Below the pieces are notes generated by a model. That model saw only the letters and a list, made by a program, of their open reading frames with translations, did not search any database and was not told the DNA's origin. From contig JACPNJ010000006.1 of NCBI GenBank assembly GCA_016185545.1, positions 1 to 61,014 on the forward strand: a stretch of DNA of 61,014 nt. The letters are read 5' to 3'. This DNA is from Candidatus Yanofskybacteria bacterium. Its GTDB lineage: Bacteria; Patescibacteriota; Minisyncoccia; 2-02-FULL-40-12; IGHO2-01-FULL-4-A. Position 1 is the stretch's first letter. The number at the start of each line of letters is the position of its first letter. Below are positions 2,864 through 44,962 of this stretch, piece by piece. The translations under genes were made by a program, and so were the position numbers.

Positions 2864-3112
2864 CTATATTTTAGCCATAATTTTACTCTCTTCTTTTTCT
2901 CTTTCAGTTTCTGCCTCTTTTATTAATTTTTCCATTCCAGCAACTCCTTCTTTGTTGCCTGCTACTTTGTGTTCCTCTAGTTTTGTCTGGTGTTCAGCAA
3001 TTATACCATTCCAATATTCAATTTGTTTTCTAGCTTCCGCCACAAATTTTTCCTGGGCTTGTTCAGCTTCTTCGTGTGAAATTTTACCAGTTGGCATTGA
3101 TTCAAATCCCAT
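2864..3112 (-). CDS. Hypothetical small charged (E/K-rich) helical protein
   Basis: Open frame of 82 aa with GGAGG-like AAGGAGG upstream on the minus strand (plus-strand cctcctt at 3119-3125). No recognisable family. Confidence 0.5.
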   Translation of the reverse strand: MGFESMPTGKISHEEAEQAQEKFVAEARKQIEYWNGIIAEHQTKLEEHKVAGNKEGVAGMEKLIKEAETEREKEESKIMAKI

Positions 3113-3219
3113 AAAAACCTCCTTTCGCGAAATTTGTCTGCAAGCAAAGCGAGCAGTAACAAATTTCAGCGTCCGCCAAAGCTTTATGCGTAGGCGGACA
3201 AACCATTTAATTAATTAGC

Positions 3220-3705
3220 TTACGCCCTTGATTCAAGAACAGTAACGCGATGTTCAAGCTTGTTAATTTTTCTTGTAGCCCCGGGCAAAAGTTCTTCCTT
3301 TACTTCTTTCATATCTGTCTTTAGCACGGTCATATCCTCTTTCATTACAGTCATATCCTCTTTCATTACAGTCATATCCTCTTTCATTACGGTCATATCT
3401 TCTTTCATCACAGTCATATCCTCTTTCAACTCCGCAACCGTTTCCATAAGCACTTCTGTTTTAATTTCTAGTTTGTCTAGGCGTTGATCTACATGCCCCA
3501 GATGTTTATTTATGTTTACGAGATTGCGGTTTGTATCAATATACTGCTCGGCCACCACCTTAACTTCGTTATCAAATTTCTCATATAAAACTCCCATGAA
3601 AGTTTTCATCTCATCCTTAAAACCTCGGATATTTTTACCGATTTTGGTTTCTAATTTATTTAAATCACCCTTGGTTGCAAACTGGTTTTCTGATTTATTG
3701 GTCAT
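3220..3705 (-). CDS. Hypothetical coiled-coil protein with 5-6 tandem MKEDMTV heptads
   Basis: 161-aa ORF with heptad-rich sequence. It contains the 21-bp tandem DNA repeat. Confidence 0.65.
   Translation of the reverse strand: MTNKSENQFATKGDLNKLETKIGKNIRGFKDEMKTFMGVLYEKFDNEVKVVAEQYIDTNRNLVNINKHLGHVDQRLDKLEIKTEVLMETVAELKEDMTVMKEDMTVMKEDMTVMKEDMTVMKEDMTVLKTDMKEVKEELLPGATRKINKLEHRVTVLESRA
3310..3435. repeat. 21-bp tandem repeat (about 6 copies, unit catatcctctttcattacagt)
   Basis: Near-identical 21-nt units are read directly at 3331, 3352, 3373, 3394 and 3415, with a degenerate unit at 3310. They are in frame in ORF 3220-3705. Confidence 0.9.
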
Positions 3706-3761
3706 GATGTTGTCAGTCTATCATTAGCATGTTTGGTGTCAATTATTGACAAAACCGGAAG

Positions 3762-4544
3762 CTATTTTATTTGATACGTTAATGTAACATTCACCGTAAT
3801 CTCATCTTCTCCGGGCGGCAGTGATGGGCCGGATACGTCTCCGCCGCCCATATCCTCGGCTTTTGCATAATAAATTCCCGGATAACCGCCAAAACCTTCT
3901 GAAAAATTAACTATCTTACCCAGACGAATTCCGATTTGGCTTTTCAACTCATCGGCCTTTTTCTTGGCATCGGCAATTGCTTTAGCACGAGCTTCGGATT
4001 TTAATTTTTCCAGATCCTCCACTGAAAATCCGAGATTATTGACATTATTCACGCCCACCGAAACCAAACCGTCTACAATTCCGCTTAGTTTATCAAAATT
4101 CCTGACCTTAACTTGGAAACTCTGCGTTACTTGATAACCGACTATCTTGGGCTGGCCGTCTCTTTCAGGCGGAAGAATAGACGGTTCTGATTGGTTATAG
4201 ATAACCGGACGGGGATAAGAATACTTTGGATAAATACTGTAAGAGGTTGTTTTGATGTCTTTGTCTTCAATGCCCTGCTTTTTTAGAAAGTCAGTAACTT
4301 TTTGTGATTTTTTAGAATTATCATCCTGCGCCGCCTTGGAAGTTGTCGCCTCGGTAATTATACTGAACTCAACCATGGCAATATCCGGCTTTGCCATTAC
4401 TTTTCCCTCGCCGCTAAATGACACTGTATTTGTGGTAGCGGCAGTATTCAGCTTCTGATTTATACTAACCAATAAAAAGACCGCAAAGATAATGACTAGC
4501 GCCGCAGACGACCAATATACTATTGTTTTTTGAAATTTAGTCAT
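3762..4544 (-). CDS. SIMPL / DUF541-family secreted protein (BP26/OMP28-like) with N-terminal membrane anchor
   Basis: N-terminal transmembrane segment. The family-typical layout is present: ..VSGEGKV..KPDIA.v.fsv..., GYQVTQSFQVKVRNFDKLSGIVD, and a C-terminal A/K-rich helix ARAKAIADAKKKADEL. Confidence 0.75.
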   Translation of the reverse strand: MTKFQKTIVYWSSAALVIIFAVFLLVSINQKLNTAATTNTVSFSGEGKVMAKPDIAMVEFSIITEATTSKAAQDDNSKKSQKVTDFLKKQGIEDKDIKTTSYSIYPKYSYPRPVIYNQSEPSILPPERDGQPKIVGYQVTQSFQVKVRNFDKLSGIVDGLVSVGVNNVNNLGFSVEDLEKLKSEARAKAIADAKKKADELKSQIGIRLGKIVNFSEGFGGYPGIYYAKAEDMGGGDVSGPSLPPGEDEITVNVTLTYQIK

Positions 4545-5124: not shown

Positions 5125-5598
5125 ATGTTAACAGGACGAATTTTTCTTATACTACACAACATCCGCAGTGCCTACAACGTCGGCTCTATTTTTCGTACGG
5201 CTGACGGGGTGGGGGTGGCTAAAATTTATATCTGCGGAATTTCGCCGACACCGGATGATGCTAAGGTAGCAAAAACTTCGCTGGGAGCAGAAAAGATGGT
5301 GCCGTGGGAATACCGTAAGCAAACATGGAGATGTTTGCTTGAAATCAAAAACCAAAACTCAAATCTCAAAATTATTGCATTAGAGCAAATGAAAAAAAGC
5401 GTAAATATTTTCAAATTCAAGCCGAAATTTCCATTGGCTCTTATTGTCGGCAATGAGGTGCGAGGCCTGAATAAAAAAATCCTGTCTTATGCTGACAAGA
5501 TTATTGAGATACCGATGTATGGCAAAAAAGAATCGCTTAATGTTGCAGTAGCAACTGGGGTGGCATTGTATACAATTTTAAATCCAAAATCTAAATGA
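5125..5598 (+). CDS. SpoU/TrmH-family RNA 2'-O-methyltransferase
   Basis: Motifs NVGSIFRTA, LIVGNEVRGL and IPMYGKKESLNVAVATGVALY. The start is set at the ATG at 5125, because the upstream part of the track ORF is antisense overlap with gene 4541-5098. Confidence 0.8.
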   Translation: MLTGRIFLILHNIRSAYNVGSIFRTADGVGVAKIYICGISPTPDDAKVAKTSLGAEKMVPWEYRKQTWRCLLEIKNQNSNLKIIALEQMKKSVNIFKFKPKFPLALIVGNEVRGLNKKILSYADKIIEIPMYGKKESLNVAVATGVALYTILNPKSK

Positions 5599-5670
5599 CA
5601 AATGCCAAATGGTTTTGGGTTTTAGATTTTGAGTTTGATTTGTAATTTGGATTTTGACATTTGGATTTTT
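5581..5670. repeat. AT-rich heptamer-periodic inverted array (CAAATGN-type units, then the inverse)
   Basis: Left arm: aatccaaaatctaaatgacaaatgccaaatgg. Right arm: ttttgggttttagattttgagtttgatttgtaatttggattttgacatttggattttt. It spans the SpoU stop (5596) to 2 nt before the rnhB ATG (5673). Confidence 0.8.
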
Positions 5671-5672
5671 AA

Positions 5673-6377
5673 ATGAGGCTTCCACACAAAACTCTTGAAA
5701 AAAAATTATTTGCGGACGGTTATCGCCATGTTATTGGCATAGATGAAGTTGGAATGGCTTGTCTGGCCGGACCTGTTTATGTTTGCGCGGTTTTGTTTAC
5801 TAAAGAATTTTTCGAAAAACCACATAAAAACCTGATCGGCTTGCGCGACTCCAAACAACTCTTACCGCATCAACGCGAAAAATTTTATGCCGAACTTATA
5901 AAAGAAGAGGGGATTAAGTACCAATTGGCTTCCTGCAATCCGAAAACAATAGACAAAATTAATATATATCAGGCGGCAAGGTTGACAATGAGAAGAGCCG
6001 TGAACAAACTAGGCGTCAGGTGCCAGGTGTCAGGTGTCAGAAAATCAAAACAAAAAAATTTTTACCTGAAACCTGTAACCTGCAACCTGAAACCTGCCGT
6101 TGTATTGGTTGATGGCAAGACTCCCATTAACGGTCTAAATCTGCCTCAAATGGCAATCGTGAAAGGCGACCGCAAGATTTTTGCTATTGCCTGCGCCTCT
6201 ATTATAGCCAAGGTTACCAGAGACCGCGTTATGTCACACCTTGCCAAGCGCTACCCCCAATACGGTCTTGAAAAACATAAGGGCTACCCAACCAAACTGC
6301 ACAAAGCCATGCTCATCCAACACGGTATTTGCGAAATACACAGAAAGTCTTTTGCACCAATAACTAAACTGCTATAA
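5673..6377 (+). CDS. rnhB: Ribonuclease HII, with a 29-codon in-frame heptamer-array insertion
   Basis: GIDEVGMACLAGPV (catalytic DE), VLVDGK, and IACASIIAKVTRD..YGLEKHKGYPT..H. Confidence 0.9.
   Translation: MRLPHKTLEKKLFADGYRHVIGIDEVGMACLAGPVYVCAVLFTKEFFEKPHKNLIGLRDSKQLLPHQREKFYAELIKEEGIKYQLASCNPKTIDKINIYQAARLTMRRAVNKLGVRCQVSGVRKSKQKNFYLKPVTCNLKPAVVLVDGKTPINGLNLPQMAIVKGDRKIFAIACASIIAKVTRDRVMSHLAKRYPQYGLEKHKGYPTKLHKAMLIQHGICEIHRKSFAPITKLL
6011..6097. repeat. Heptamer-periodic inverted array inside rnhB
   Basis: Sequence is aggcgtc aggtgcc aggtgtc aggtgtc ag, then an A-rich loop, then acctgaa acctgta acctgca acctgaa acctg. It is 87 nt (29 codons) with no stop. Confidence 0.9.
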
Positions 6378-6760: not shown

Positions 6761-7765
6761 ATGAATAAAATCGCAATCAATGGCTTTGGTCGTATAGGAC
6801 GGATATTTTTCAGGCAGGCATTCGGCCGTGCCGATTTGGATGTTGTCGCGATTAATGATTTGGGTACACCGGAAAATTTGGCTTACCTTTTGAAATACGA
6901 CACTGTGTACGGCCGATACGAAAAAGAGGTCGGCTATAAGGACTCCACGCTGGTAATTGAAGGCAAAGAGATTAGAGTGCTCAATGAAAAAGAGCCGGCT
7001 AAACTGCCATGGAAAGAACTTGGTGTAGATATTGTCATTGAATCAACCGGGGTTTTTGATTCGCGGGAACTTGCCGCGGCCCATCTTGACGCCGGCGCTA
7101 AGCGGGTAATAATTACCGCTCCCGCTAAAGACGAAATTACTCCTACGGCTACTCCGGGCCTTCTTGAAAACACCAAGCTGGATAAAATCACCTCCAATGC
7201 TTCCTGCACCACCAATGCCGTTAATCCTGTCATGGCGATAATGATGGCAAATCCCGGGGTACAAAAGGCGATACTTACAACTGTGCATGGTTACACGGCT
7301 ACGCAAGGTCTCGTAGATGGACCGGACAAAAAAGGCGATTTCCGCCGCGCCCGCGCGGCGGCGCAAAACATTGTGCCCTCCACAACCGGCGCGGCGGCGG
7401 CTACAGCCAGGGTTCTGCCGGGCCTCGCCGGTAAATTTGATGGCTTGGCAATCCGCGTACCGGTTCTATCCGGCTCGCTTATTGATATTACATTCCTGTC
7501 CGCCCGCCCGACTACAGCAGAAGAAATAAACGGCATATTTAAAGAAGCGGCCGTCCGACCGGAATGGCAGGGGATTTTGACTGTTACCGAAGACCCACTT
7601 GTATCATCTGATATTTTGCGTAATCACCACGGTTCAATCGTTGATTTGGCTTTAACACGCGTAGTTGATGGAGATTTGGTAAAAATTTTTTCCTGGTATG
7701 ATAACGAGTGGGGTTACGGAGCGATGCTTTTAAAGCATGTGCTCACGGTAGCTAGCATAATTTAA
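6761..7765 (+). CDS. gap: Glyceraldehyde-3-phosphate dehydrogenase, type I
   Basis: NGFGRIGR Rossmann start, active-site SNASCTTN, and WYDNEWGY near the C-terminus. Confidence 0.95.
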   Translation: MNKIAINGFGRIGRIFFRQAFGRADLDVVAINDLGTPENLAYLLKYDTVYGRYEKEVGYKDSTLVIEGKEIRVLNEKEPAKLPWKELGVDIVIESTGVFDSRELAAAHLDAGAKRVIITAPAKDEITPTATPGLLENTKLDKITSNASCTTNAVNPVMAIMMANPGVQKAILTTVHGYTATQGLVDGPDKKGDFRRARAAAQNIVPSTTGAAAATARVLPGLAGKFDGLAIRVPVLSGSLIDITFLSARPTTAEEINGIFKEAAVRPEWQGILTVTEDPLVSSDILRNHHGSIVDLALTRVVDGDLVKIFSWYDNEWGYGAMLLKHVLTVASII

Positions 7766-7862
7766 AATGCAAAATGCAAAAGTCAAAATTACAGTGCAAA
7801 ATTCAAAATTTTAAATTTTAAATTGTCATTTTTTATTTTGAGATTTACATTTTAAACTTTTG
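7764..7862. repeat. AT-rich heptamer-periodic inverted array
   Basis: Units aaaatgc aaaatgc aaaagtc aaaatta .. aaaattc aaaattt are followed by taaattt taaattg tcatttt ttatttt gagattt acatttt. It begins at the gap stop codon. Confidence 0.8.
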
Positions 7863-11035: not shown

Positions 11036-14000
11036 ATGAATTTTATGGAAAATATTGAAAATAGCAAAATTTTTGCCGATTTAAACGATAAACAAATTGA
11101 AGCGGTGCGGGCCATAGAAGGCCCTGTTTTAATATTGGCCGGCGCCGGAAGCGGGAAATGTGTTTCTGGAGATACTTTGATATTTACAGGGGCGGGCATA
11201 ATACCTATTGAAGAAATCCCTCTTCACTTTGGTGTTAGTTCACAAAATGATTGCTCCGCGCCAATACTTTCGCATCACTTAAACGGAAGTTTCTCTATCA
11301 AGAATACCTCCCATTGGTTCAGGTTCCCAAAAACTAAAGTCATAAAAATTAGCACCAAAAGCGGTTATCAAATTACGGGCACATACGAGCATCCCTTACT
11401 TGTGTTAAATAGAGAAGGCGAATTGGAGTTTAAAAAGCTACGGGACTTAAAGAACGGCGAAGTGGTTGCTATTTCCAAAAATAATAATATCTGGGGAAAT
11501 TACAATCTCCATCCTGAAATTGCTTATCTGATGGGATTACTGGTGGGCGATGGTTACCTGGGTTTCAAAAGCGGTATTGGTTTTGCCCAGGTCAGTGAAA
11601 ATTTGATCAAGGCATTTAAAAATATTTTAAAAAAATTCTTCCAAATCCAAGTGGCTAAAATTAAATCGCGAGAGAGATACCCGGCTGGCAATAAAAGGCG
11701 CTCCACAACTCATTACGTATATAATATGGCCCTAAAAAGAGAGTTGGAAGGTCTTGGTCTAAAAATGGTAGGTTCGCATCATAAATCAATCCCACAAAGC
11801 GTTCTTACAGCCCCCAAGGATTCGGCCAAAGCATTCCTGCAAGGACTTTTTGACACCGATGGAAGCGTAAGCGGAGCTACCGTAGAATTGACTACCGCCT
11901 CCGAAACTCTGGCCAAACAAGTGCATGTCTGCCTACTAAACTTTGGTATTCGCGCTTCGTTAAGGCCGAAATTTGTAAAAAGTTATCGTAACAATACCTA
12001 CTGGCGCATAGCAATAATGGGAACTTCACTAAGGACTTTTGCCGCTGAAGTTGGATTTAGGTACCAGGATCACAAAATAGAAAAACTCCAAGCCATAGCA
12101 AACAAGGTTAGCAATAGCAATGTTGAGGTAATTCCATTCCAAAACCTAAACATAAAACACTTTAAAGATAGATACCTGCTTGGCACTGAAATTTATGATG
12201 GCAAGTATTATTACATATTTCCAGAAACACATAATAAAATCTACATAAGGGATTACCTGCGCCGGAGAAGAAATCCCTCCCCTTGGCAATTAGAAAGAAT
12301 ACTAAAAACAGCGGGTAACGGAGCAAGAGATCCGCGAGTAGAGTATATGTTTAACCTCACTCGAAATTTCTTTTTCGACCCCGTTGTTGAGGTGGCGAGA
12401 GAAAAAGAGAAAATAATTGTTTATGATTTTACCGTACCTAAAAATCATACTTTTGTCGGCAATGGTTTTATAAATCACAATACCCGCGCGCTGACACACC
12501 GCATCGCTTATATGATTGCCAATAACATTCCGCCACAAAATATTTTGGCTGTTACCTTCACGAACAAGGCTGCCGGCGAGATTAAAGAAAGAGTTGTAAA
12601 ATTACTGTCCGAAACTCAACCTAAAACCTATGACCTGAAACCTATAACCTCCCCCTCGCCGTGGCTGGGTACCTTCCACTCAATTTGCCTGCGAATTTTG
12701 CGCCATGATATTAAAACCCTCCCGCCTTATACCGAGAACTTTGTTGTCTACGATGAGGACGACCAGCTGGGTCTGATTAAAAACGTAATGCGTGAACTGG
12801 AGCTTGATATTAAGAAATTCAATCCCAAGAATGTGCTCGGCCGAATCTCCGCCCTCAAAAGCGAGCTTATTGGCTACGAAGAGTTTACAGAAAAAGCCCG
12901 AGAATACTTTGAAAAAATAGTCGCTCCTGTTTATACCGGCTATCAGATTACACTCCAACAAAATAATGCTCTGGATTTTGATGATTTAATTATGCTTTGT
13001 GTCCGGCTTTTTCAGAAGCATCCCGAAATACTGGAAAAATATCAAAATCTCTTCCGCTATATACTAATAGACGAATATCAAGACACGAATCATAGCCAGT
13101 ACGTCTGGGTTAATTTGCTGGCGCAAAAACATAGAAATCTTTTCGTAATAGGAGACGACTATCAAAGCATCTATTCATTCCGCCTAGCAAATATCCGCAA
13201 CATCTTGGACTTTGAGAAAGATTATCCCGAAGCAAAAATTATACTGCTTGAACAAAATTACCGTTCCACGGGCAACATCCTTGCCGCCGCCAACAATATA
13301 ATCATTAAAAACAAGAACCAAAAACATAAAAAGTTATGGACGGAGAACTCGGCAGGCGACGAAATAATATTAAAAGAAGCCGCCAATGAGCGGCGAGAGG
13401 GGGATTACGTGATTGAAACGGTACGAAACAACCTTAAACAAGGCCGCGGCCTGCAAGATTTCACAATTCTTTATCGCACCCACGCCCAATCAAGAGCTAT
13501 TGAGGAAGCAATGATTAAGCATGGCCTGCCGTACCGTATACTTGGCGGAGTTAAGTTTTACCAACGGCGAGAAATTAAAGACATTCTGGCCTACCTGCGA
13601 CTGGCCGTAAATCCTAACGATCTTATTAGCTGGAGCAGGATTTACAACGTACCCGGCCGCGGTATAGGTCAAACAACCTGGCAAAAAATAAAAGAAGCGA
13701 GAAAATTAAACATCGCTGAAACAATAAAAAACATCACCCTGGAATCAAGCATCGGCCAAAAACAAACCATCGCCCTTAAGTTGCTGGCTAAGTTTATCGA
13801 GGAATTATCACAAAAATCAGCAGAACTCTCGCCATCTCAACTAATTAAATATATTCTGCAAAAAACTAACTACGAGTTATACATCAATGACAAAACCACG
13901 GATGGCGAAGAACGCTGGGAAAATGTCAAAGAAATTTTGACCGCCACCCGCAAGTATGACAGCGAAACAGCACCGAATGGCCTGCAAAAATTCCTTGAAG

Positions 14001-14380
14001 AGGTCGCCTTAATTCAAGAAACGGATAAGATTGACAAAAGCGGCGGCGCAATCAATCTTATGACAATACATTCGGCCAAGGGCTTAGAGTTTCCGATTGT
14101 ATTTATCATTGGTATGGAAGATGGCATCTTCCCGCACTCGCGCGCCTTATTTGAGCCTGCGGAACTTGAGGAGGAAAGGAGACTTTGTTATGTCGGTATC
14201 ACTCGCGCCAAAGAACAGCTTCATCTGACCTATTGCCGAGAACGTATGTTTTATGGTTCTACTCAACTCAACCCGCCATCCAGATTTTTATTTGAAATCC
14301 CGGAACATTTGTTAAATTACTCGCCGCTTAGCCAAAATAAATATACGGAGGATTGGGACGATAAAATTGAGTACTATTAA
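11036..14380 (+). CDS. pcrA: ATP-dependent DNA helicase PcrA/UvrD, interrupted by an intein in the Walker A motif
   Basis: The exteins read AGAGSGK|T RALTHRIAYM, TFTNKAA, IDEYQDTN, DDYQSIYSFR, NYRS, IHSAKGLEF and YVGITRA. Confidence 0.9.
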   Translation: MNFMENIENSKIFADLNDKQIEAVRAIEGPVLILAGAGSGKCVSGDTLIFTGAGIIPIEEIPLHFGVSSQNDCSAPILSHHLNGSFSIKNTSHWFRFPKTKVIKISTKSGYQITGTYEHPLLVLNREGELEFKKLRDLKNGEVVAISKNNNIWGNYNLHPEIAYLMGLLVGDGYLGFKSGIGFAQVSENLIKAFKNILKKFFQIQVAKIKSRERYPAGNKRRSTTHYVYNMALKRELEGLGLKMVGSHHKSIPQSVLTAPKDSAKAFLQGLFDTDGSVSGATVELTTASETLAKQVHVCLLNFGIRASLRPKFVKSYRNNTYWRIAIMGTSLRTFAAEVGFRYQDHKIEKLQAIANKVSNSNVEVIPFQNLNIKHFKDRYLLGTEIYDGKYYYIFPETHNKIYIRDYLRRRRNPSPWQLERILKTAGNGARDPRVEYMFNLTRNFFFDPVVEVAREKEKIIVYDFTVPKNHTFVGNGFINHNTRALTHRIAYMIANNIPPQNILAVTFTNKAAGEIKERVVKLLSETQPKTYDLKPITSPSPWLGTFHSICLRILRHDIKTLPPYTENFVVYDEDDQLGLIKNVMRELELDIKKFNPKNVLGRISALKSELIGYEEFTEKAREYFEKIVAPVYTGYQITLQQNNALDFDDLIMLCVRLFQKHPEILEKYQNLFRYILIDEYQDTNHSQYVWVNLLAQKHRNLFVIGDDYQSIYSFRLANIRNILDFEKDYPEAKIILLEQNYRSTGNILAAANNIIIKNKNQKHKKLWTENSAGDEIILKEAANERREGDYVIETVRNNLKQGRGLQDFTILYRTHAQSRAIEEAMIKHGLPYRILGGVKFYQRREIKDILAYLRLAVNPNDLISWSRIYNVPGRGIGQTTWQKIKEARKLNIAETIKNITLESSIGQKQTIALKLLAKFIEELSQKSAELSPSQLIKYILQKTNYELYINDKTTDGEERWENVKEILTATRKYDSETAPNGLQKFLEEVALIQETDKIDKSGGAINLMTIHSAKGLEFPIVFIIGMEDGIFPHSRALFEPAELEEERRLCYVGITRAKEQLHLTYCRERMFYGSTQLNPPSRFLFEIPEHLLNYSPLSQNKYTEDWDDKIEYY
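11159..12481 (+). mobile_element. Intein (441 aa) with LAGLIDADG homing-endonuclease domain, inserted between K and T of GSGKT
   Basis: It starts CVSGDTLIF, has block B TGTYEHPLL, endonuclease motifs LMGLLVGDGYL and FLQGLFDTDGSV, and ends VGNGFINHN followed by +1 Thr. Confidence 0.85.
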
Positions 14381-15211: not shown

Positions 15212-16899
15212 GCGGCTTGCTCTTGTCCCTTGCCTATTCGGGTTGGAGTTTTGATTTGGGCTGGCTGGTCTGGATTGGATTTGTTCCACTTTTTTGGTCG
15301 TTGGCCCAAATCGTTTCCGAATACGAACATACTCGGAAACGATTTGGATTTTTGATAGGGTTCATCGCAGGACTTGTTTATTTTTTGATAATTTTCCGCT
15401 GGTTTTGGTCTATCTATCCGCTGGATACACTTGGCATTGAAAACCGTTCTATCTCCTTCGTCGCTGTTCTGCTTGTTTATCTGATTAGCTCTGCCGGAAT
15501 GGCAGTGTTTTGGGGACTTTTTGGAGCAGGTTTCAGGTTTCAGGTTTCAGGTTTCAGGTTTCAAAATGGATCAAGCACCTGGCACCTGGCACCTGGCACC
15601 TGGCACCCTTTGTTAATACTTTCCGCCCTATTCGTCCTGTTTGAATATCTCCGCTCCTGGGGTTTCGGGTTTTTGTGGGCCGGTTCCAATTCGCTTTTTG
15701 GCCCGCATTGGACATTGGGCAATCTGGCTTATGCTTTGGCCGATAATCCATTGGCGCTCAAACTCGCTTCGTTTGTTGGCGTCTATGGGGTTACTTTTGC
15801 GATTATTTTTATAAATTGCCTAATTTTTATAATTTTAAAAAAAAGGACTTATCTTGTAACCACAAGAATAGTCCTTGTGGTTTTGATACTTTTATTGGCT
15901 ACCTTTGGAACCAGGTTAATTAAATTTACGGCCACGCAGCAAGAAAAAAGTAAACAAGTTAACTTCGCCATTATACAAACCGCCCGGCCAACCAAAGTTT
16001 TGCCAAGTCCTCAAGAAACCTTGGCCGATCTCAAAGAACAGCTTGAATTACTTGACCGTGTCGCCAAAGAACATCCCGAAAGCCAGCTTATCGTTTTCCC
16101 CGAAACAAGCGACCTATTTAAAAATATCGCCCTGTTTTTAACCCCAGTGCAAGCCCAGGAATATTTTAGCAATCTTTTTGAAGATCCGAAATTAATAATT
16201 GCCGGCGGTAGAGTTATTGATTCCAATAGCAGTGCCTACTCACGTGTTTTCGATCTTAATACACAAAACGGCATTATCAACTATTATGATAAGCGTCTTC
16301 TAACTCCAGGCGGTGAATTTTTGCCTTACCCGGTAAAATTAATCGCTTGGATATTTTCAAAAACCACGGCCAATCAATTTGACAGCTTGCGCGAATTAAA
16401 TGTTGGCGTTAAAGATGTCTCAACTGTAAACTTCCGCGACCAATTTAAGGTAGCACCGATGATTTGTTCTGAATTGCTATCACCGAGTTTAGTCAAACAA
16501 ACTTCCCAAAGTTCAGATGTAATCGTCAGTATGGCAAGTTATGGAATTTTTCACGGAAATCCTGTTATAGCAAAGCAGATGCTTGCCACTACACGCTTCA
16601 GAGCAATAGAGAACACCAAACCAGCCGTTACCGCCGCTAATTTGGGACGCTCTTATGCAATAGACAGTCGAGGAAAAGTTGCTTATTTAGCCGCAAACTC
16701 CGATCCGCAGATATTAACAGGTTCTATTGTGCTAGGTTCCGGTAAATCGTGGTATAATAGAGTAGGCGATTTGCCAATAATTTTGGTATCTTTGCTATTG
16801 ATGGTCCTAGGGTTCAGGTTACAGGTGTCAGGTTACAGGGGAAGAATAAAATCTTGGTTATGGAGGAACCAAGAAATTAAAAATGGTAAATTCCTATAA
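15175..16899 (+). CDS. lnt: Apolipoprotein N-acyltransferase with heptamer-array segments
   Basis: Polytopic N-terminal half, then a CN-hydrolase domain (AIIQT.., VFPETS, APMICSEL). Confidence 0.8.
   Translation: MAKYRYYALAALSGLLLSLAYSGWSFDLGWLVWIGFVPLFWSLAQIVSEYEHTRKRFGFLIGFIAGLVYFLIIFRWFWSIYPLDTLGIENRSISFVAVLLVYLISSAGMAVFWGLFGAGFRFQVSGFRFQNGSSTWHLAPGTWHPLLILSALFVLFEYLRSWGFGFLWAGSNSLFGPHWTLGNLAYALADNPLALKLASFVGVYGVTFAIIFINCLIFIILKKRTYLVTTRIVLVVLILLLATFGTRLIKFTATQQEKSKQVNFAIIQTARPTKVLPSPQETLADLKEQLELLDRVAKEHPESQLIVFPETSDLFKNIALFLTPVQAQEYFSNLFEDPKLIIAGGRVIDSNSSAYSRVFDLNTQNGIINYYDKRLLTPGGEFLPYPVKLIAWIFSKTTANQFDSLRELNVGVKDVSTVNFRDQFKVAPMICSELLSPSLVKQTSQSSDVIVSMASYGIFHGNPVIAKQMLATTRFRAIENTKPAVTAANLGRSYAIDSRGKVAYLAANSDPQILTGSIVLGSGKSWYNRVGDLPIILVSLLLMVLGFRLQVSGYRGRIKSWLWRNQEIKNGKFL
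15528..15607. repeat. Heptamer-periodic inverted array inside lnt
   Basis: (aggtttc)x4-5, loop aaaatggatcaag, then (cacctgg)x3-4. It is translated as FRFQVSGFRFQ..STWHLAPGTWHP. Confidence 0.9.
16809..16840. repeat. Heptamer array, left arm of the cassette enclosing four-helix-bundle gene 1
   Basis: Sequence agggttc aggttac aggtgtc aggttac aggg, located in the last codons of lnt. Confidence 0.85.
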
Positions 16900-17239
16900 G
16901 GATTTGACTGTTTGGCAAAGGTCTCTCGAGTTAGTCAAAGAAATTTATAAAACAACTAGATTTCTACCAAAAGATGAAATTTATGGTTTAACGAATCAGA
17001 TGAGAAGGGCAGCAATATCGATACCTTCTAACATAGCCGAGGGACATCAAAGAAAAAATCTAAAAGAATATCTGCAATTCTTGAGAATATCTTATGGCTC
17101 GGCTGCAGAGCTAGAAACACAGCTTATTATTTCCAAAGAAATATATCCACGCATAGATTTTTTGACAGCGGAGTCGCTTCTTAAGGAAGTTCATAAAATG
17201 TTAAATACTCTGATCCAGAAACTTGAATTAAAATTTTAA
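16883..17239 (+). CDS. Four-helix-bundle protein (23S rRNA intervening-sequence protein family)
   Basis: Family signature Y.DL.VWQ....L...IY......P..E.YGL..Q.RRAA.SI..NIAEG.....K.....F..I..GS..E..T. Confidence 0.85.
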   Translation: MVNSYKDLTVWQRSLELVKEIYKTTRFLPKDEIYGLTNQMRRAAISIPSNIAEGHQRKNLKEYLQFLRISYGSAAELETQLIISKEIYPRIDFLTAESLLKEVHKMLNTLIQKLELKF

Positions 17240-17270
17240 CCTGAAACCTGATCCCTGAAACCTGTAACCT
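17239..17270. repeat. Heptamer array, right arm (inverse units) of cassette 1
   Basis: Sequence acctgaa acctgat ccctgaa acctgta acct, starting in the stop codon of the four-helix-bundle gene. Confidence 0.85.
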
Positions 17271-17302
17271 TCTGCTAGCGGGAGGCTAGCGGCATACAAA
17301 AC

Positions 17303-21677: not shown

Positions 21678-22256
21678 ATGCCGCTAACTCATCAAAAATA
21701 TCTTCAATATAGCCCATTTTTTGTAGACGCTACGGAGATGTCTGATTTGGATTGGGAAAGATTAAATACGAAAATAGACAAAATACCACAAACTTTAGCT
21801 GACTTTTTGGTTGATATTAAGGTTTCCGAGTTCATAGACGCCTTAGCCCAAAAATATATCCAACTCTCGGTGCAGGGACCGGATATGGCTAGGTTGATTA
21901 GGGATGTGGTGATCAGGGATATTTTTATCGGCGACATACCAAAGGAAATTTCAGATCGGCTGGGAGTTGACCAAACCCTCGCCCGCGAGATTGCAAATTT
22001 AATCATCTCCCAGCTTTTTACGCCGATTATTGAAGATATAAAGAAAGTACAGAACGAAAGGTATCCGGGTAGATTGCCCGCCCAATCACAGGTTTCAGGT
22101 GTCAGGGTTCAGGGTTCGGGGCAAAGCGGGCAAGATCCCAAACCAGTAGCGCCACCCTCCTACGCCAAGGCTTCGGAGGGCACAGCAAAGCATTATCAGG
22201 GCGAAGAGTTACCAGAATCAGGCGGTAATATTATTGACTTGCGAAGCAAGTCATAG
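21678..22256 (+). CDS. Hypothetical protein with heptamer-array and GC-hairpin segments near its C-terminus
   Basis: 192-aa ORF. Its C-terminal third is low complexity (QVSGVRVQGSG.., PPSYAKASEG) and is encoded by repeats. Confidence 0.5.
   Translation: MPLTHQKYLQYSPFFVDATEMSDLDWERLNTKIDKIPQTLADFLVDIKVSEFIDALAQKYIQLSVQGPDMARLIRDVVIRDIFIGDIPKEISDRLGVDQTLAREIANLIISQLFTPIIEDIKKVQNERYPGRLPAQSQVSGVRVQGSGQSGQDPKPVAPPSYAKASEGTAKHYQGEELPESGGNIIDLRSKS
22090..22121. repeat. Heptamer array (single arm) inside ORF 21678-22256
   Basis: Sequence aggtttc aggtgtc agggttc agggttc gggg. Confidence 0.8.
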
Positions 22257-22292
22257 GTTATAGGTTATAGCTGATAGCTGATAGGTGATAGC
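22255..22292. repeat. Heptamer array, left arm of the cassette enclosing four-helix-bundle gene 2 (AGGTTAT/AGCTGAT flavour)
   Basis: Sequence aggttat aggttat agctgat agctgat aggtgat agc. It begins within the TAG stop of the upstream ORF. Confidence 0.85.
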
Positions 22293-22339
22293 TTTAAAAA
22301 TGAGTTCTAGAAATAAGGAGGCTAGGACGCAAATAAAAA

Positions 22340-22705
22340 GTGGATAAAATTCATTCGTACAGAGATTTAGTGGTATGGCAAAGGTCCATTGAGCTAGTTA
22401 TAGAAATATACACGCTAACTGATAGGTTTCCGAAAGAAGAAATTTACGGACTAATTTCGCAATTAAGGAGAGCTGCCGTTTCAATCCCTTCTAATATCGC
22501 CGAAGGCAGGTATCGTGGGACAAGAAAAGATTTTAGGCAATTTCTTCTTAATGCTTACGGCTCTGGCGCTGAAGTTGAAACACAATTGGTTATTGCAAAT
22601 AAATTGCCGAAAACAAAAAATTTAAATTATGTCAGAGCAAATAAAATTCTAGATGAAGTAATGCTAATGTTAAATTCACTAATCAAAAAATTGGAAACTT
22701 CTTAA
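22340..22705 (+). CDS. Four-helix-bundle protein (23S rRNA intervening-sequence protein family), second copy (GTG start)
   Basis: YRDLVVWQRSIEL..IY..FPKEEIYGLISQLRRAAVSIPSNIAEG..FL..AYGSGAEVETQL. By eye it is roughly half identical to copy 1. Confidence 0.85.
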   Translation: MDKIHSYRDLVVWQRSIELVIEIYTLTDRFPKEEIYGLISQLRRAAVSIPSNIAEGRYRGTRKDFRQFLLNAYGSGAEVETQLVIANKLPKTKNLNYVRANKILDEVMLMLNSLIKKLETS

Positions 22706-22736
22706 CTATAACCTATGACCTATAAGCTATCACCTG
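22706..22736. repeat. Heptamer array, right arm of cassette 2
   Basis: Sequence ctataac ctatgac ctataag ctatcac ctg. It starts 1 nt after the stop and ends 4 nt before the next ATG. Confidence 0.85.
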
Positions 22737-22740
22737 CACC

Positions 22741-23046
22741 ATGAGATTCCAAGTCCCCCAATTCATAGAAACGGAAACCAAAATCGTCGGGCCATTCACG
22801 TTCAAGCAATTTTTGTTTCTGGCCGTTGGGGCGGTAATAATTTTTATCCTGCAATATGTAATCACCAGTTTTACTTTTTTAATAATTGTGGCTCTGCCGA
22901 TTGCTGCCTTATCCATTGCGCTTGCGTTTTACCGGATAGATGGCATACCCTTGCCGCAATACTTATTGATGGCATTATCATATGCGACGGGGGCGAAAAG
23001 ATACCAATTCACTAAAGAAAATAAGCAAAATTATTTGCAAAAATAG
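22741..23046 (+). CDS. PrgI-family (VirB3-like) small membrane protein
   Basis: N-terminus MRFQVPQFIETETKIVGPFTFKQFLFL followed by two transmembrane segments. It lies just upstream of VirB4-like genes. Confidence 0.7.
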   Translation: MRFQVPQFIETETKIVGPFTFKQFLFLAVGAVIIFILQYVITSFTFLIIVALPIAALSIALAFYRIDGIPLPQYLLMALSYATGAKRYQFTKENKQNYLQK

Positions 23047-23114
23047 GTTTCAGGTTACAGGTTTCAGGTTACAGAAAATTAAACCTGACACCTGACACCT
23101 GACACCTGACACCT
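23045..23114. repeat. Heptamer-periodic inverted array (stop-to-start)
   Basis: Sequence aggtttc aggttac aggtttc aggttac ag, loop aaaattaa, then (acctgac)x4 acct. It overlaps the TAG stop at 23044-23046 and ends at the TTG start at 23114. Confidence 0.9.
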
Positions 23115-23755
23115 TGCCCACACCGCCCAAAAACCAGTCCACCAAAGATTTCGTAGAAATCGCGGACATCCGCGAGAGTGTTGCGGTCTTAAAAGATGGG
23201 TCTTTGCGTTCTGTTATTGAAGTTGGTTCAATGAATTTTGAGCTTAAGTCAGCCGATGAACAAATGGCAATAATAAGCGCTTTCCAGAATTTCCTGAATT
23301 CCATTGATTTTCCGCTTCAAATCGCCGTTAATTCGCGTAAATTAGAAATCGGACCATATATGAAGTCGCTTAATGAACTGACCCAGAGCATTTCCAATGA
23401 ACTTATGAAAATCCAGGCCATTGAATACACGCGTTTCATCAAAGGACTAACGGAACTTGCCAATATAATGTCAAAAAAGTTTTATATTGTCGTTCCGCTG
23501 TATATTGTGGAAACGATCGGCAAGGGAGAACAGGGAACTGGAATTTTAGGCGCTTTCAGAAGCGTGGTTAGCCCTTCCAAATTCACTAAAACCCTCACTG
23601 ATCAAGAATTTGAAAATTATAAAACACAACTTAGTCAAAAAAACCAGTTTGTCATGGACAGCATCAGCGGATTAGGCATTGAAACGCGGATATTGGGAAA
23701 AGAGGAGCTAATGAATCTTTATTATTCTTATTACAATCCGGGACATCAATTATAA
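23114..23755 (+). CDS. VirB4/TraE-like protein, N-terminal domain fragment (TTG start)
   Basis: DFVEIADIRESVAVLKDGSLRSVIEVGSMNFELKSADEQMAIISAFQNFLNS resembles the N-terminal region of Gram-positive VirB4-type ATPases. It is in the same reading frame as 23894-25618. Confidence 0.6.
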   Translation: MPTPPKNQSTKDFVEIADIRESVAVLKDGSLRSVIEVGSMNFELKSADEQMAIISAFQNFLNSIDFPLQIAVNSRKLEIGPYMKSLNELTQSISNELMKIQAIEYTRFIKGLTELANIMSKKFYIVVPLYIVETIGKGEQGTGILGAFRSVVSPSKFTKTLTDQEFENYKTQLSQKNQFVMDSISGLGIETRILGKEELMNLYYSYYNPGHQL

Positions 23756-23760
23756 AAAGA

Positions 23761-23830
23761 AGGTGTCAGGTGCCAGGTTTCAGGTTACAGAAAATCACAC
23801 CTGACACCTGACACCTGACACCTGACACCT
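23761..23830. repeat. Heptamer-periodic inverted array between the two VirB4 parts
   Basis: Sequence aggtgtc aggtgcc aggtttc aggttac ag, loop aaaatcac, then (acctgac)x4 acct. Confidence 0.9.
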
Positions 23831-23893
23831 AAAATTTCATTATTCGCTAAAAAACCACAACCAATCGCTTCGCCCACAGAACCGCCTGTAAAA

Positions 23894-25618
23894 ATGTTGG
23901 ACGATATCTTGGCTCCTTCGGCGATTGATATTTCTTCCAACTATCTGCAAATAGGCGATACTTACGCCCGCACTTTTTTCTTAGCAACTTATCCGAGATA
24001 TCTAAATACCAACTGGTTTTCTCCGATTGTTAATATGGATCGGCCTTTTGACGTGTCTATTTTTGCGCATCCGGAAAATACTGCCCAAATGCTCAAGCAG
24101 CTACGCGATCGGCTTGGCCGGCTTCAGGCTCAGGAAATGGAGGAACAAGCGGCCGGTAAAGTAAGAGATCCGGTGTTGGAAACGGCTATCGGCGACATTG
24201 AGGCGCTTAGGGATAAACTACAGCAAGGAACAGAAAGATTTTTTAGATTGGGAGTTTATATAACGATATACGGCGGTTCGCTAAAAGAACTTGATGATAC
24301 GGAAAATAAAATCAAGTCAATTCTTGACGGTCAGCTGGTTTATTCAAAACTAGCAACTTTCAGAATGAAAGAAGGATTTTTCTCAACCCTGCCGCTTGCC
24401 GACGACCAGCTTCAGGTCCATAATTCATTGAATACCGAACCGATTTCCTCGCTTTTTCCTTTCGTGTCTTATGACCTGACCACAGAGAAGGGAATACTTT
24501 ACGGAATAAATACTCACAATAATTCTCTGGTTTTATTTGACAGGTTTAGTATGGAAAATGCGAATATGGTGATTTTCGGAAAGAGCGGCGGCGGTAAATC
24601 ATATGCCGTTAAATTGGAAATTCTCAGAAGTTTGATGTTTGGCACGCAGGTTTTTGTGATTGACCCTGAAAACGAATATAAATTCCTATCTGACACTGTA
24701 GGCGGCACTTCCATTAAAATATCCATCACCTCACCGCACCATATCAATCCGTTTGATCTGCCCAAGCCGTTACCCGATGAAAGTCCGGCTGACGTTTTAC
24801 GTTCTCATATTATTAATCTAATGGGTCTTTTTAAGCTCATGCTGGGAACGCTTACGGCGGAAGAAGAGGCGATTTTGGACGAAACCATAAATCAAACCTA
24901 TGCCATTAAGGACATAACGCCCCAAACGGCCGATTTGAAAAACGCCGTGCCACCGTTGATGTCGGATTTTCAAAATGTTTTAGAGGGCATGGCCGGCACG
25001 GAATCTTTGGTCATCAGGATTAAAAAGTATACTGAAGGTACATTTGCCGGTTTTTTGAATAATCCGACCAACGTTGAGTTAAATAATCAGCTGATAGTTT
25101 TCGGCATTCGCGACATGGAAGAAGAACTGCGCCCGATTGCCATGTATTTGGTGCTCAATTTTATTTGGACGCAAGTCAGAACAGAGTTGAAAAAACGTAT
25201 TTTAGCCGTGGATGAGGCGTGGGTATTGATGAAATACGAATCCGGAGCGGCATTTTTGTTCAATATAGCCAAGCGTGCACGCAAATACTATTTGGGTTTA
25301 ACAACAATTTCCCAAGATATTCCGGATTTCATGGCTTCGCCGTACGGCAAACCGATTGTTACCAATTCATCCCTGCAGTTGCTATTAAAACAATCGCCGG
25401 CATCAATCGACTTGGTTAAACAAACATTCAACCTGACAGATGCGGAAAAATTTTATCTTCTGGAATCGCGTGTGGGTCACGGTTTGTTTTTCGCCGGCAT
25501 CAATCATGTGGCCTTGCGGGTGATAGCATCATACGCTGAAGATCAGATTATTACCTCTGACCCAAGACAGATATTGGAAATAGAGGAAGCTAAAAAAGAA
25601 CTAGCAAAGCAAAGTTAG
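23894..25618 (+). CDS. VirB4-like type IV secretion ATPase, C-terminal (NTPase) part
   Basis: Walker A FGKSGGGKSY and Walker B ILAVDEAW, followed by TTISQD. The upstream region (NTNWFSPI.., FDVSIF) is typical of VirB4 middle domains. Confidence 0.8.
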   Translation: MLDDILAPSAIDISSNYLQIGDTYARTFFLATYPRYLNTNWFSPIVNMDRPFDVSIFAHPENTAQMLKQLRDRLGRLQAQEMEEQAAGKVRDPVLETAIGDIEALRDKLQQGTERFFRLGVYITIYGGSLKELDDTENKIKSILDGQLVYSKLATFRMKEGFFSTLPLADDQLQVHNSLNTEPISSLFPFVSYDLTTEKGILYGINTHNNSLVLFDRFSMENANMVIFGKSGGGKSYAVKLEILRSLMFGTQVFVIDPENEYKFLSDTVGGTSIKISITSPHHINPFDLPKPLPDESPADVLRSHIINLMGLFKLMLGTLTAEEEAILDETINQTYAIKDITPQTADLKNAVPPLMSDFQNVLEGMAGTESLVIRIKKYTEGTFAGFLNNPTNVELNNQLIVFGIRDMEEELRPIAMYLVLNFIWTQVRTELKKRILAVDEAWVLMKYESGAAFLFNIAKRARKYYLGLTTISQDIPDFMASPYGKPIVTNSSLQLLLKQSPASIDLVKQTFNLTDAEKFYLLESRVGHGLFFAGINHVALRVIASYAEDQIITSDPRQILEIEEAKKELAKQS

Positions 25619-25695
25619 GTTTCGGGTGTCAGGTTTCAGGGACCAGGTTAAAGAAAAATTTTCCCTGTAACCTGTAACCTGTAACCTGTAACCTG
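25617..25695. repeat. Heptamer-periodic inverted array (stop-to-start)
   Basis: Sequence aggtttc gggtgtc aggtttc agggacc aggttaa, loop agaaaaattttc, then (cctgtaa)x4 cctg. It overlaps the TAG at 25616-25618 and abuts the ATG at 25696. Confidence 0.9.
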
Positions 25696-26361
25696 ATGCC
25701 GGATGATCAATACTACTACGACCTTGCTTATGCCCGAGGACAGCAACAAGAACAGAGAGAAATCCAAGATACTGCCAATCGTGTTATAAAACCGCCATCG
25801 GGTACGTTATATTTTTTTCTTTACTGTCTTGCTGGAATTGGCGATATATTGGATTGGCTCACTCTCACCGGAATTGGAGCTATTGTTTCCTTTATAGTTG
25901 ACCTTTTTATCGGCATAATACTATTTTTCGCCGGACGCGCGGCAAGAGACAGGATAAAAACCATGAATGAATTCCAGGATGGCCTTCATGGACATATACA
26001 AAATATCGAAAGGAAAATTGTTGCTTACAGAAATGCTTATGCTAAAATTTTAAGAGTGTCCCGAAAAGTTAAGATCCTAAGAAAACCAGTCAGGAAACTT
26101 GCATTAAGATTCGCAAGATTGCGAAAAAGTGTTGCCAGAAGTCCCTTGGGAAGAACGATTGCCGCAATTATCGCTGATTTAATCCCTTTTTTAGATCTTA
26201 TGCCTTGGCGAACTATTAATATCTATATGATGAAAAAACAAGAAATGCAGGCTTTCCAAGACGCTCAAAATATGTTACCTGAATATATGGAGGCCAAAGC
26301 AGATGAAATAGAAGCGGCAAACGATTTGCAAGAAGCAGAGATGACAGAACAAGCCGCATAA
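25696..26361 (+). CDS. Hypothetical membrane protein (two transmembrane segments, basic or amphipathic tail)
   Basis: 221-aa ORF in the cluster. No recognisable family. Confidence 0.55.
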   Translation: MPDDQYYYDLAYARGQQQEQREIQDTANRVIKPPSGTLYFFLYCLAGIGDILDWLTLTGIGAIVSFIVDLFIGIILFFAGRAARDRIKTMNEFQDGLHGHIQNIERKIVAYRNAYAKILRVSRKVKILRKPVRKLALRFARLRKSVARSPLGRTIAAIIADLIPFLDLMPWRTINIYMMKKQEMQAFQDAQNMLPEYMEAKADEIEAANDLQEAEMTEQAA

Positions 26362-36693: not shown

Positions 36694-36766
36694 TAGGTTA
36701 TAGGTTATAGGTTATAGGTTATAGGTTTAAAATTTCTAACACCTATAACCTATCAGCTATCACCTG
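36694..36766. repeat. Heptamer-periodic inverted array (yidD stop to yidC start)
   Basis: (taggtta)x4-5, loop taaaatttctaa, then cacctat aacctat cagctat cacctg. The plus-strand right arm contains the yidD TGA, and the other end lies 2 nt from the yidC start. Confidence 0.9.
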
Positions 36767-37322: not shown

Positions 37323-37328
37323 GCATTC

Positions 37329-37388
37329 AGGTTATAGGTTACAGGTTATAGGTTACAGGTTTTTTCTGACACCTGACGCCTGACACCT
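37329..37388. repeat. Heptamer-periodic inverted array (rpmH stop to rnpA start)
   Basis: Sequence aggttat aggttac aggttat aggttac aggt, loop tttttct, then gacacct gacgcct gacacct. Confidence 0.9.
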
Positions 37389-37524
37389 AAACAGTAAGCT
37401 GTTGTCTTCCTTTCCGGCGACGGCGAGCTAAAACTTTTCTGCCATTTTTGGACCTAGCCCGTTTTAAAAATCCATGAGTCTTGGCTCTTTTCTTCTTTTT
37501 TGGACGATATAATGTAATTTTCAT
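37387..37524 (-). CDS. rpmH: 50S ribosomal protein L34 (45 aa; below the ORF-track length cut-off)
   Basis: Hand translation gives [45 protein letters not shown]. Confidence 0.9.
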
Positions 37525-44876: not shown

Positions 44877-44887
44877 AGCGAATTTTA

Positions 44888-44962
44888 AGGTTTCAGTTTT
44901 CAGGGATCAGGTTTCAGGTACTAGAGAAGAACCTGTAACCTGTAACCTGTAACCTGTAACCT
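44888..44962. repeat. Heptamer-periodic inverted array (yebC stop to ruvC start)
   Basis: Sequence aggtttc agttttc agggatc aggtttc aggtac, loop tagagaaga, then (acctgta)x4 acct. Confidence 0.9.

Follow-up and report, generated by a model that had tools for sequence, protein, structure and literature searches.

The window that we analysed is a stretch of 61,014 nucleotides (positions 1 to 61,014 of the forward strand) of contig JACPNJ010000006.1, from the Candidatus Yanofskybacteria bacterium assembly GCA_016185545.1. On its plus strand, an open reading frame (ORF) at 5673-6377 codes for a ribonuclease HII (RNase HII) of 234 residues, as indicated by the ORF list, Pfam, NCBIfam, AlphaFold and Foldseek. 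This rnhB gene hosts an insert made of two inverse arrays of tandem heptamers. The gene product matches Pfam RNase_HII PF01351 (1.4e-36) in two separate stretches, and it passes the equivalog model NF000595 of NCBIfam with 205.5 bits for a cut-off of 167. An earlier note on this DNA, written from the sequence alone, had described a heptamer array with both arms, in frame inside rnhB, whose peptide lies between the conserved blocks ..RRAVNKL and VLVDGK. Tandem Repeats Finder, the ORF and both family matches bear this out, and the translation of the ORF places the insert peptide GVRCQVSGVRKSKQKNFYLKPVTCNLKPA between ..RRAVNKL and VVLVDGK. The length of 87 nt, or 29 codons, was also given correctly; the coordinates 6011-6097 were not, as the codons occupy positions 6012-6098.

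The left arm (6011-6040, plus strand) is composed of the units AGGCGTC, AGGTGCC, AGGTGTC and AGGTGTC followed by AG, and it encodes GVRCQVSGV. The A-rich loop AAAATCAAAACAAAAAAATTTTT of 23 nt (6041-6063) encodes the Lys/Arg-rich centre RKSKQKNF. The right, inverse arm (6064-6098) has the units ACCTGAA, ACCTGTA, ACCTGCA, ACCTGAA and ACCTGCC; it encodes LKPVTCNLKPA and is free of stops in the rnhB frame. Tandem Repeats Finder reported both arms with a period of 7, namely 4.3 copies of the consensus AGGTGTC at 6011-6040 and 4.7 copies of ACCTGAA at 6064-6096. Over 30 nt, 77% of the bases in the two arms (6011-6040 and 6066-6095) can pair with each other, and 25 nt lie between them. The RNA of the insert is predicted to fold with -34.2 kcal/mol (z = -5.55, none of 200 shuffled sequences being as stable) into a hairpin in which CAGGU/ACCUG helices of 5 bp alternate with 2x2 internal loops, the A-rich loop being unpaired. 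When the entire window was searched with the gathering thresholds of Rfam, no family was assigned to any of the arrays, and neither an intron or ribozyme at the rnhB insert nor a large-subunit rRNA was detected; only a 16S rRNA fragment and two tRNAs were returned. A scan for consensus terminators found nothing at the rnhB array.

Comparison with the RNase HII of Thermotoga maritima using HMMER aligned residues 13-115 and 138-234 of the rnhB product with residues 6-98 and 97-191 of the chain, leaving residues 116-137 unaligned between the two stretches. The approximately 22 extra residues sit between the T. maritima helix ending in ..ALENLSV and the strand that carries the catalytic D107, and the net insertion is of about 22-23 residues relative both to the T. 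maritima enzyme and to the 'empty' orthologues. A model obtained with AlphaFold2 from 38 homologues has a mean predicted local distance difference test (pLDDT) score of 82.1. Its sole segment below 50 comprises residues 117-133, which are flanked by a helix (98-113) and a strand (142-147). The best Foldseek match of the model is T. maritima RNase H2 (3o3f_A, E = 7e-18, template modelling scores of 0.71/0.74). In this model, the insert is the only low-confidence excursion from an otherwise retained RNase HII fold, and it probably lies at the surface of the protein.

The catalytic DEDD acids D24, E25, D147 and D166 are present in the rnhB product and kept in all 120 closest homologues covering these positions; the homologues that have names belong to Candidatus Yanofskybacteria or Paceibacteria, and among the sources of relatives are wells of the Hainich groundwater (ENA ERZ1292626 and ERZ1292629) and SRR23936507. 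The GRG motif of RNase HII reads the 2'-OH at the RNA-DNA junction, and its Arg contacts the junction ribose in characterised enzymes. Here this motif reads G-M-A (DE-x-GRG being replaced with DEVGMA, residues 23-30, 5739-5762). M28 is found in 105 of the 120 homologues, and GM(G/A) is the state of the whole clade, in which the junction-ribose Arg of the characterised enzymes is thus absent. The GMA sequence appears to be a trait of this clade, not a sign of decay of this particular copy. The earlier note had named evidence of a decaying pseudogene, such as a loss of catalytic residues in relatives, as something that would refute its idea, and the reverse was found. As the catalytic acids are conserved in all homologues covering them, a pseudogene is excluded as far as conservation can tell, and RNase HII activity is probably retained despite the insert.

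The reading frame of the insert is the next line of evidence. In the rnhB frame it contains no stops, as against three in one of the two other sense frames. The earlier note had reasoned that uniform inverse units bring a stop codon into one of every three units, and had proposed that the inverse arm was edited to avoid this. Its arithmetic is right. With the right-arm units denoted by their last three bases, units 1 and 4 cannot be GTA in the rnhB frame, as this would create TAA, and unit 3 cannot be GAA, which would create TGA. This rule is obeyed in the window and in two orthologous loci, L081 (80% protein identity) and L083 (73%), in which the 87-nt insert recurs with identical length and frame. 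The order of the right-arm units is GAA-GTA-GTA-GAA-GCx in L081 and L083, and the window has GCA as its third unit; the left arm of L083 is a perfect (AGGTGTC)x4 array. The stop-free order has been kept in L081 and L083, but to call the arm edited says too much. The GCA unit is a synonymous TGT to TGC (Cys) change relative to both orthologues, and the same caution applies to the mixing of GAA and GTA units. This mixing also occurs in intergenic copies (23045-23072 and 23761-23788), and it is therefore a trait of the family and not specific to coding sequences. Judging from their sequences, the window, L081 and L083 have clearly inherited a single insertion from a common ancestor.

The linker found at the insertion site ranges from 7 to 53 residues among the 120 homologues. 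It has at least 20 residues in 67 of them, all of which retain the catalytic residues, and at most 12 residues in 36. Wherever the corresponding DNA was read, the extended linker proved to be an in-frame heptamer hairpin. Eight further orthologous loci, with six other types of heptamers, are all in frame and stop-free at the DNA level, so that the frame seen in the window holds in every orthologous insert read. Slippage within such arrays proceeds by steps of 7 nt, yet the lengths of the inserts are always multiples of 3, which argues for a constraint on the frame. Stop depletion in the genic copies is also apparent within the window, where only 2 of the 48 strand and frame readings of eight intergenic two-arm copies are free of stops. 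The rnhB copy and the copy found in lnt are open in the frames of their hosts, and the internal lnt copy is open in all three sense frames. These comparisons support the view that the insert is read through by the ribosome and that its frame is kept open by selection.

The insert also appears to be constrained at the nucleotide level. By Nei-Gojobori counts on the window, L081 and L083, the proportion of synonymous differences (pS) is 0.18-0.30 over the whole insert and 0.11-0.23 in the arms alone, as against 0.63-0.80 in the rest of rnhB. The corresponding proportions of nonsynonymous differences (pN) are 0.09-0.21, 0.02-0.10 and 0.13-0.20. If the insert were carried along neutrally in a loop, it should diverge at least as much as the silent sites of its host. 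Its pS is far lower, and something thus acts on its nucleotides. This would be either selection for the hairpin or the heptamers, or homogenisation against other copies. The proposal of the earlier note that the segment is translated and tolerated under selection for an open frame is therefore strengthened by the frames of the orthologues and the depletion of stops, but 'tolerated' says too little for an insert whose synonymous sites are constrained as well.

The heptamers at the rnhB site differ from one lineage to another, with the two arms co-varying. The left and right units are AGTGGTC and AACCACT in L168, AGTATTA and TAATACT in L085, AGGGTTC and GGACGCT in L167, GTAGTAA and TTACTAC in L001, ATTACGn and CGTAATn in L004, and CGAAATC and TTTCGnn in L015. 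Nine of ten orthologous inserts fold arm-on-arm, with z from -2.2 to -7.4. The left and right arms share on average 5.1 inverse 5-mers when they come from the same genome and 0.93 when they are taken across genomes. In spite of this variety of units, the left junction AAACT|AG is identical to the nucleotide in all rnhB inserts read.

The rnhB insert is one member of a family dispersed in the window. The pattern AGGTNNNAGGTNNNAGGT (three AGGT units, at most one mismatch) occurs 57 times in the window, for 0.11 occurrences expected, and at least 17 arrays were found in the 61 kb, with unit types CAGGTnn, TAGGTTA and CAAAATn. Several of them lie in genes. A complete two-arm element (GFRFQVSGFRFQNGSSTWHLAPGTWH) is located in frame in Lnt (15527-15607, plus strand), with uniform, stop-free GCACCTG units in its right arm; a perfect (CAGGTTT)x5 array occurs in Lnt. 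UvrD harbours a single-arm array in frame (12619-12653, plus strand), which encodes QPKTYDLKPIT and accounts for a net gain of 7 residues (three units, or 21 nt) over the UvrD of L085, a protein with 80% identity. Similarly, a class-V aminotransferase contains a single-arm (CAGGTTA)x4 array in frame (57642-57669, plus strand), which encodes RRLQVTGYRLQ and at which its Pfam match is split into two stretches. Another heptamer array is in frame in the ORF at 21678-22256 (22090-22117), and the array starting at 16809 (listed as 16809-16899) supplies the C-terminus of Lnt in frame (second Lnt copy). The in-frame arrays of UvrD, Lnt, the ORF at 21678-22256 and the aminotransferase all encode peptides of the QVSG/FRxQ type.

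Other copies are intergenic, unstranded two-arm elements devoid of ORFs. That at 23045-23117 reads (AGGTTTC AGGTTAC)x2, AGAAAATTAA and (ACCTGAC)x4, with stops in all six frames. Tandem Repeats Finder and frame reading identified similar copies at 23761-23833 and 25617-25698, and others are found at 36694-36765 between yidC and rnpA, with TAGGTTA arms, at 37328-37392 upstream of rnpA, and at 44884-44966 between ruvC and yebC. The intergenic copies fill short operon spacers, such as yidC-rnpA, ruvC-yebC and those of the PrgI/TraG cluster. This cluster (22741-25698) resembles those of type IV secretion and codes for PrgI, a 213-residue protein and a TraG/VirB4-like ATPase, and a heptamer hairpin fills each of its intergenic spacers. 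A second, AT-rich two-arm family with CAAAATn / nATTTTG units occurs at 5580-5670, directly upstream of the rnhB start codon, and at 7759-7862, just after the GAPDH gene.

The loop start CAGAAAAT of the rnhB insert is common to the intergenic copies at 23045 and 23761. We had considered these two copies as the rnhB element in reverse, with swapped arm flavours. This was dropped, as CAGAAAAT follows the left arm in all copies; arm flavour therefore does not define orientation. In the elements at 6011-6098, 23045-23117, 23761-23833 and 25617-25698, the two arms mostly use different unit variants, for example GTC on the left and the complement of TTC or TAC on the right. Each pairing of heptamers thus includes a mismatch, and helices of 5 bp alternate regularly with 2x2 internal loops along the stem. 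Long perfect palindromes are apparently avoided in these four elements. Inspection of the flanks of eight two-arm copies of the window revealed neither target-site duplications nor a common insertion motif.

Two members of the family are longer and carry a gene. The first, IVP1 (16809-17274, plus strand), has a left arm at 16809-16843, a PF05635/TIGR02436 gene at 16883-17239 and a right inverse arm at 17240-17274. The second (22253-22735, plus strand), with TAGGTnn/TAGCTGA arms, has its left arm at 22253-22291, a PF05635 gene at 22340-22705 and its right arm at 22706-22735. In both, the gene coding for this four-helix bundle lies between the left arm and the inverse right arm, which begins at the stop codon. 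The flavours of their arms, CAGGTnn and TAGGTnn/TAGCTGA, correspond to the two flavours with a G that occur among the ORF-less copies. PF05635/TIGR02436 corresponds to the Avd-like '23S rRNA intervening-sequence protein' (IVP). It is the sole gene found inside the full-length copies and, to our knowledge, is not a known transposase. The loop end AAAATTTT of the rnhB insert, next to the right arm, is common to the 3' end of the IVP1 element. Short as it is, this match fits an internally deleted derivative, and it is suggestive of the rnhB insert having arisen, in the manner of a miniature inverted-repeat transposable element (MITE), from an element that carried the IVP gene.

We scanned metagenomes with the two IVP proteins of the window and collected 80 loci (L086-L165), 64 of them non-redundant with both flanks, for which random control pairs were drawn from the same loci. 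A heptamer array is present upstream of the IVP gene in 80% of the 64 loci (controls, 7.8%), downstream of it in 62% (controls, 3.6%) and on both sides in 61% (controls, 0.65%). The units vary from one IVP locus to another, and all fit a YAG-NNNN pattern. This co-occurrence of arms and IVP genes suggests, in a manner directly open to test, that the protein may recognise or propagate the heptamers that flank its gene. In the literature we came across no account of PF05635 genes lying between heptamer arrays, nor of heptamer hairpins from Patescibacteria; an earlier mention is possible in Elhai et al. 2008 (Genome Research).

Based on these analyses, we consider it most likely that the rnhB insert is an ORF-less member of this family, lodged at a permissive surface junction of RNase HII, translated and kept open by selection, while a separate process at the nucleotide level keeps its arrays uniform. 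The element is a dispersed inverted repeat, each arm of which has four to five tandem heptamers made of YAG and four variable bases, here CAGGTnn. Full-length copies enclose a PF05635/TIGR02436 gene, as in the intervening sequences (IVSs) of 23S rRNA. The rnhB copy is seated between the helix ending in ..RRAVNKL and the beta-strand VVLVDG that bears the catalytic Asp147. It would be transcribed and read through, so that the enzyme gains some 22 residues, most of them basic, in a flexible excursion at its surface and remains functional. Two constraints would act on it. The first is the open frame, with lengths in multiples of three and stop-creating units kept out of in-frame positions. The second bears on the nucleotide sequence and the complementarity of the arms, through a factor that recognises the hairpin or the heptamers, or through homogenisation against other genomic copies.

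Several points weigh against this explanation. The translation of the 87-nt segment is a property that we infer by comparison. The synonymous test involves about 21 synonymous sites in three related sequences only, the set of loci read at the DNA level is small (19 genome loci and 7 looked-up contigs, 26 in total), and protein databases are biased towards intact ORFs. The insert of L005 does not fold significantly (z = -0.33), and the other arrays of this locus are not obviously of the same flavour as its rnhB insert. The related loci in general span only about 6 kb, too short for a test of genome flavour. The match of AAAATTTT and the arm between the rnhB loop and the end of the IVP1 element is short and A/T-rich. 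Lastly, no transposase or excision footprint was found for the family, so that mobility of the element, like a role of the IVP protein, is something that we only infer.

The alternative that survives best concerns the history of the site. It could be a hot spot hit independently by the heptamer element of each lineage, rather than the site of one old insertion whose units were turned over by conversion. We regard independent hits as possible, though doubtful. In their favour, the insert of each orthologue has its own heptamer with matching arms, and in a distance tree the proteins with an insert do not group apart from the empty ones. Moreover, L169 carries CAGTGAT arrays elsewhere while its rnhB site is empty, and the AG start and 'CAGAAAA' loop start common to the inserts are also features of the intergenic copies of the family. 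Against them, the window, L081 and L083 share their insertion by descent, and the left junction does not vary by a single nucleotide. Some of the 'empty' forms of 214 residues (KLQTTHYKLRT) resemble remnants of the right arm (..ITNHYPLNT), which suggests loss, and the flanks of other arrays in the window have no target motif in common. The tree, a poorly resolved neighbour-joining distance tree of a protein of approximately 200 residues, is too weak for counting gains and losses.

The insert peptide might instead have been recruited for a function, for example as a basic loop that binds nucleic acids or a partner, and be kept for its amino acid sequence. A Lys/Arg-rich insert would suit a nucleic acid-binding enzyme; the linker is extended in 67 of the 120 relatives, and pN is low in the arms. 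Nevertheless, the peptides are unrelated across lineages, being mere translations of the heptamer of each genome, and the silent sites of the insert are as conserved as its replacement sites, which points to a constraint on nucleotides. These two observations make an adaptive peptide unlikely. In addition, 36 of the 120 homologues have no insert, the basic centre follows from the AGA and AAA codons of an A-rich loop, and the pLDDT of the segment is low.

It is less likely still that the rnhB transcript loses the hairpin or is cleaved at it, by RNase III as in the 23S rRNA IVSs or by splicing, or that the element serves mainly to destroy or regulate the rnhB mRNA. The element does share its architecture with the IVSs that RNase III excises from 23S rRNA (PMC4990558), its predicted RNA hairpin is stable, and the low synonymous divergence indicates a constraint on the nucleotides or the RNA. 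However, excision of an IVS leaves the pieces unligated, and an mRNA cut in this manner could not encode the C-terminal half of the enzyme, which is under purifying selection judging from the pN and pS values outside the insert. There would then be no reason for orthologous inserts to be stop-free and multiples of three in length, or for stops to be purged from genic relative to intergenic copies, and Rfam has no intron or ribozyme at this place. Partial cleavage of the hairpin may occur as a regulatory side effect.

We consider it highly improbable that the in-frame arrays are phase-variation switches, in which slippage by 7 nt would switch off rnhB, uvrD and others in a reversible manner. 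Perfect arrays do occur in coding sequences, as in rnhB of L083 and in Lnt, and two of the host genes are DNA-repair genes. Nevertheless, none of the 26 loci is a frame-shifted variant, and such a role is thus not supported; the arrays are also short (4-5 units) and often imperfect, and Lnt and the aminotransferase are not typical contingency loci. Finally, that rnhB is a decaying pseudogene which happens to be still open can be dismissed almost entirely: its GMA sequence in place of the canonical GRG after DE is clade-wide, the four catalytic acids are kept, the NCBIfam equivalog cut-off is passed, and outside the insert pN is much lower than pS and the confidence of the AlphaFold model is high.

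A few other features of the window and its relatives are worth reporting. UvrD (11036-14380) contains a LAGLIDADG intein at approximately residues 89-482 (Pfam Intein_splicing and LAGLIDADG_3), of which the syntenic UvrD of L085 (657 residues) is devoid. A partial 16S rRNA gene at 98-1391 covers positions 875-1387 of the Rfam model over 1294 nt, which implies an insertion of about 780 nt in the 16S rRNA gene, including a LAGLIDADG_2 ORF (395-988). A second ORF of this kind, LAGLIDADG_1, follows the 16S fragment at 1747-2313. In the minus-strand ORF at 3220-3705, which has no Pfam match, a 21-nt tandem repeat occurs at 3309-3428 (4.8 copies, 93% matches). In the syntenic L085 locus (374-kb contig JACOZV010000001.1), a diversity-generating retroelement with an RVT_1 reverse transcriptase and bAvd lies directly downstream of rnhB (2928-4266).

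If our reading of the rnhB insert is correct, the small genomes of the Candidate Phyla Radiation would not only tolerate hairpin repeats in essential enzymes but actively maintain them. The orthologue series, with different inserts at one structural site, would be useful for understanding how proteins absorb insertions. For annotation and phylogenetics, variation in protein length among Patescibacteria could be derived from repeats and not from function. These observations also bear on two old puzzles, the function of the IVP family and the origin of bacterial heptamer repeats. In a broader and tentative view, which may well turn out to be wrong, a widespread selfish or regulatory system would have the heptamer-array hairpins as its cis elements and the TIGR02436/PF05635 Avd-like protein as its trans factor. 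This system would include the 23S rRNA IVSs and perhaps the short tandemly repeated repetitive (STRR) type of repeats of cyanobacteria and Xanthomonas. Its ORF-less copies would have spread to spacers and, in frame, to housekeeping genes, and a templated or conversion process would keep them uniform in each genome, hence the lineage-specific, co-varying heptamers of the rnhB site.

Four kinds of known elements are similar in part to that of rnhB. MITEs and the palindromes of the repetitive extragenic palindrome (REP) and bacterial interspersed mosaic element (BIME) types are also short, ORF-less inverted repeats that outnumber gene-carrying copies and fill operon spacers. Unlike in those systems, we saw no transposase, REP-associated tyrosine transposase (RAYT) gene or target-site duplications, the latter in the flanks of the eight copies inspected. 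PF05635 is the only gene enclosed, and the arms are tandem arrays and not unique terminal inverted repeats.

Heptameric repeats have been described in Xanthomonas (GGGAATC, with 70-75 convergent inverted pairs), in cyanobacteria (STRR / GGGGAYT) and in Beggiatoaceae (TAACTGA) (PMC4692102, PMC4679880). Like these, the arrays of the window consist of head-to-tail 7-nt units at many loci, with about four units per array, mostly between co-directional genes. Both also include convergent pairs that may form stem-loops and occasional copies in ORFs. The units themselves are not those of the described families. The latter have been taken to form G-quadruplexes or to serve as sites for translational regulators, and were reported as scarcer than expected in coding regions and without association to mobile elements or PF05635 genes. 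In contrast, the CAGGTnn unit is not prone to form G-quadruplexes, several copies are predicted to be translated, and arms flank IVP genes.

The IVSs of 23S rRNA have the architecture of the full-length copies. That of Coxiella has an S23p ORF, a 28-bp stem and three GACAGAT tandem heptamers in the part of the stem immediately upstream of this ORF, and it is excised from 23S rRNA by RNase III (PMC4990558). The elements at 16809-17274 and 22253-22735 have, like the IVSs with S23p / PF05635 ORFs of Coxiella and Leptospira, an inverted-repeat stem around a PF05635 ORF. Unlike the IVSs, which are located in helix 25 or 45 of 23S rRNA and excised by RNase III, the rnhB copy is inside a protein-coding gene, encloses a loop of 23 nt without an ORF and is apparently translated.

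The Rickettsia palindromic elements (RPEs) are in-frame palindromic repeats in housekeeping genes, and they add peptides that are compatible with the fold of their hosts (PMC10969869). As with RPEs, the elements of the window form a dispersed family of hairpins found in frame in unrelated genes, here rnhB, uvrD, lnt and the aminotransferase. Unlike them, they are tandem heptamers whose unit varies by genome, without a conserved peptide, linked to PF05635 and found in Patescibacteria. RPEs are approximately 100-150 bp long, have family-specific conserved sequences and peptides and occur only in Rickettsia. The window elements are set apart from them on these descriptions, not on a comparison of consensus sequences, and they have no conserved peptide of the RPE kind. 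The rnhB element is thus a member of none of these systems by sequence or location. Its insertion in frame has a precedent in Rickettsia; what is unexpected is its conservation at the nucleotide level, the lineage-specific and co-varying heptamers at one site and the association of the family with IVP genes.

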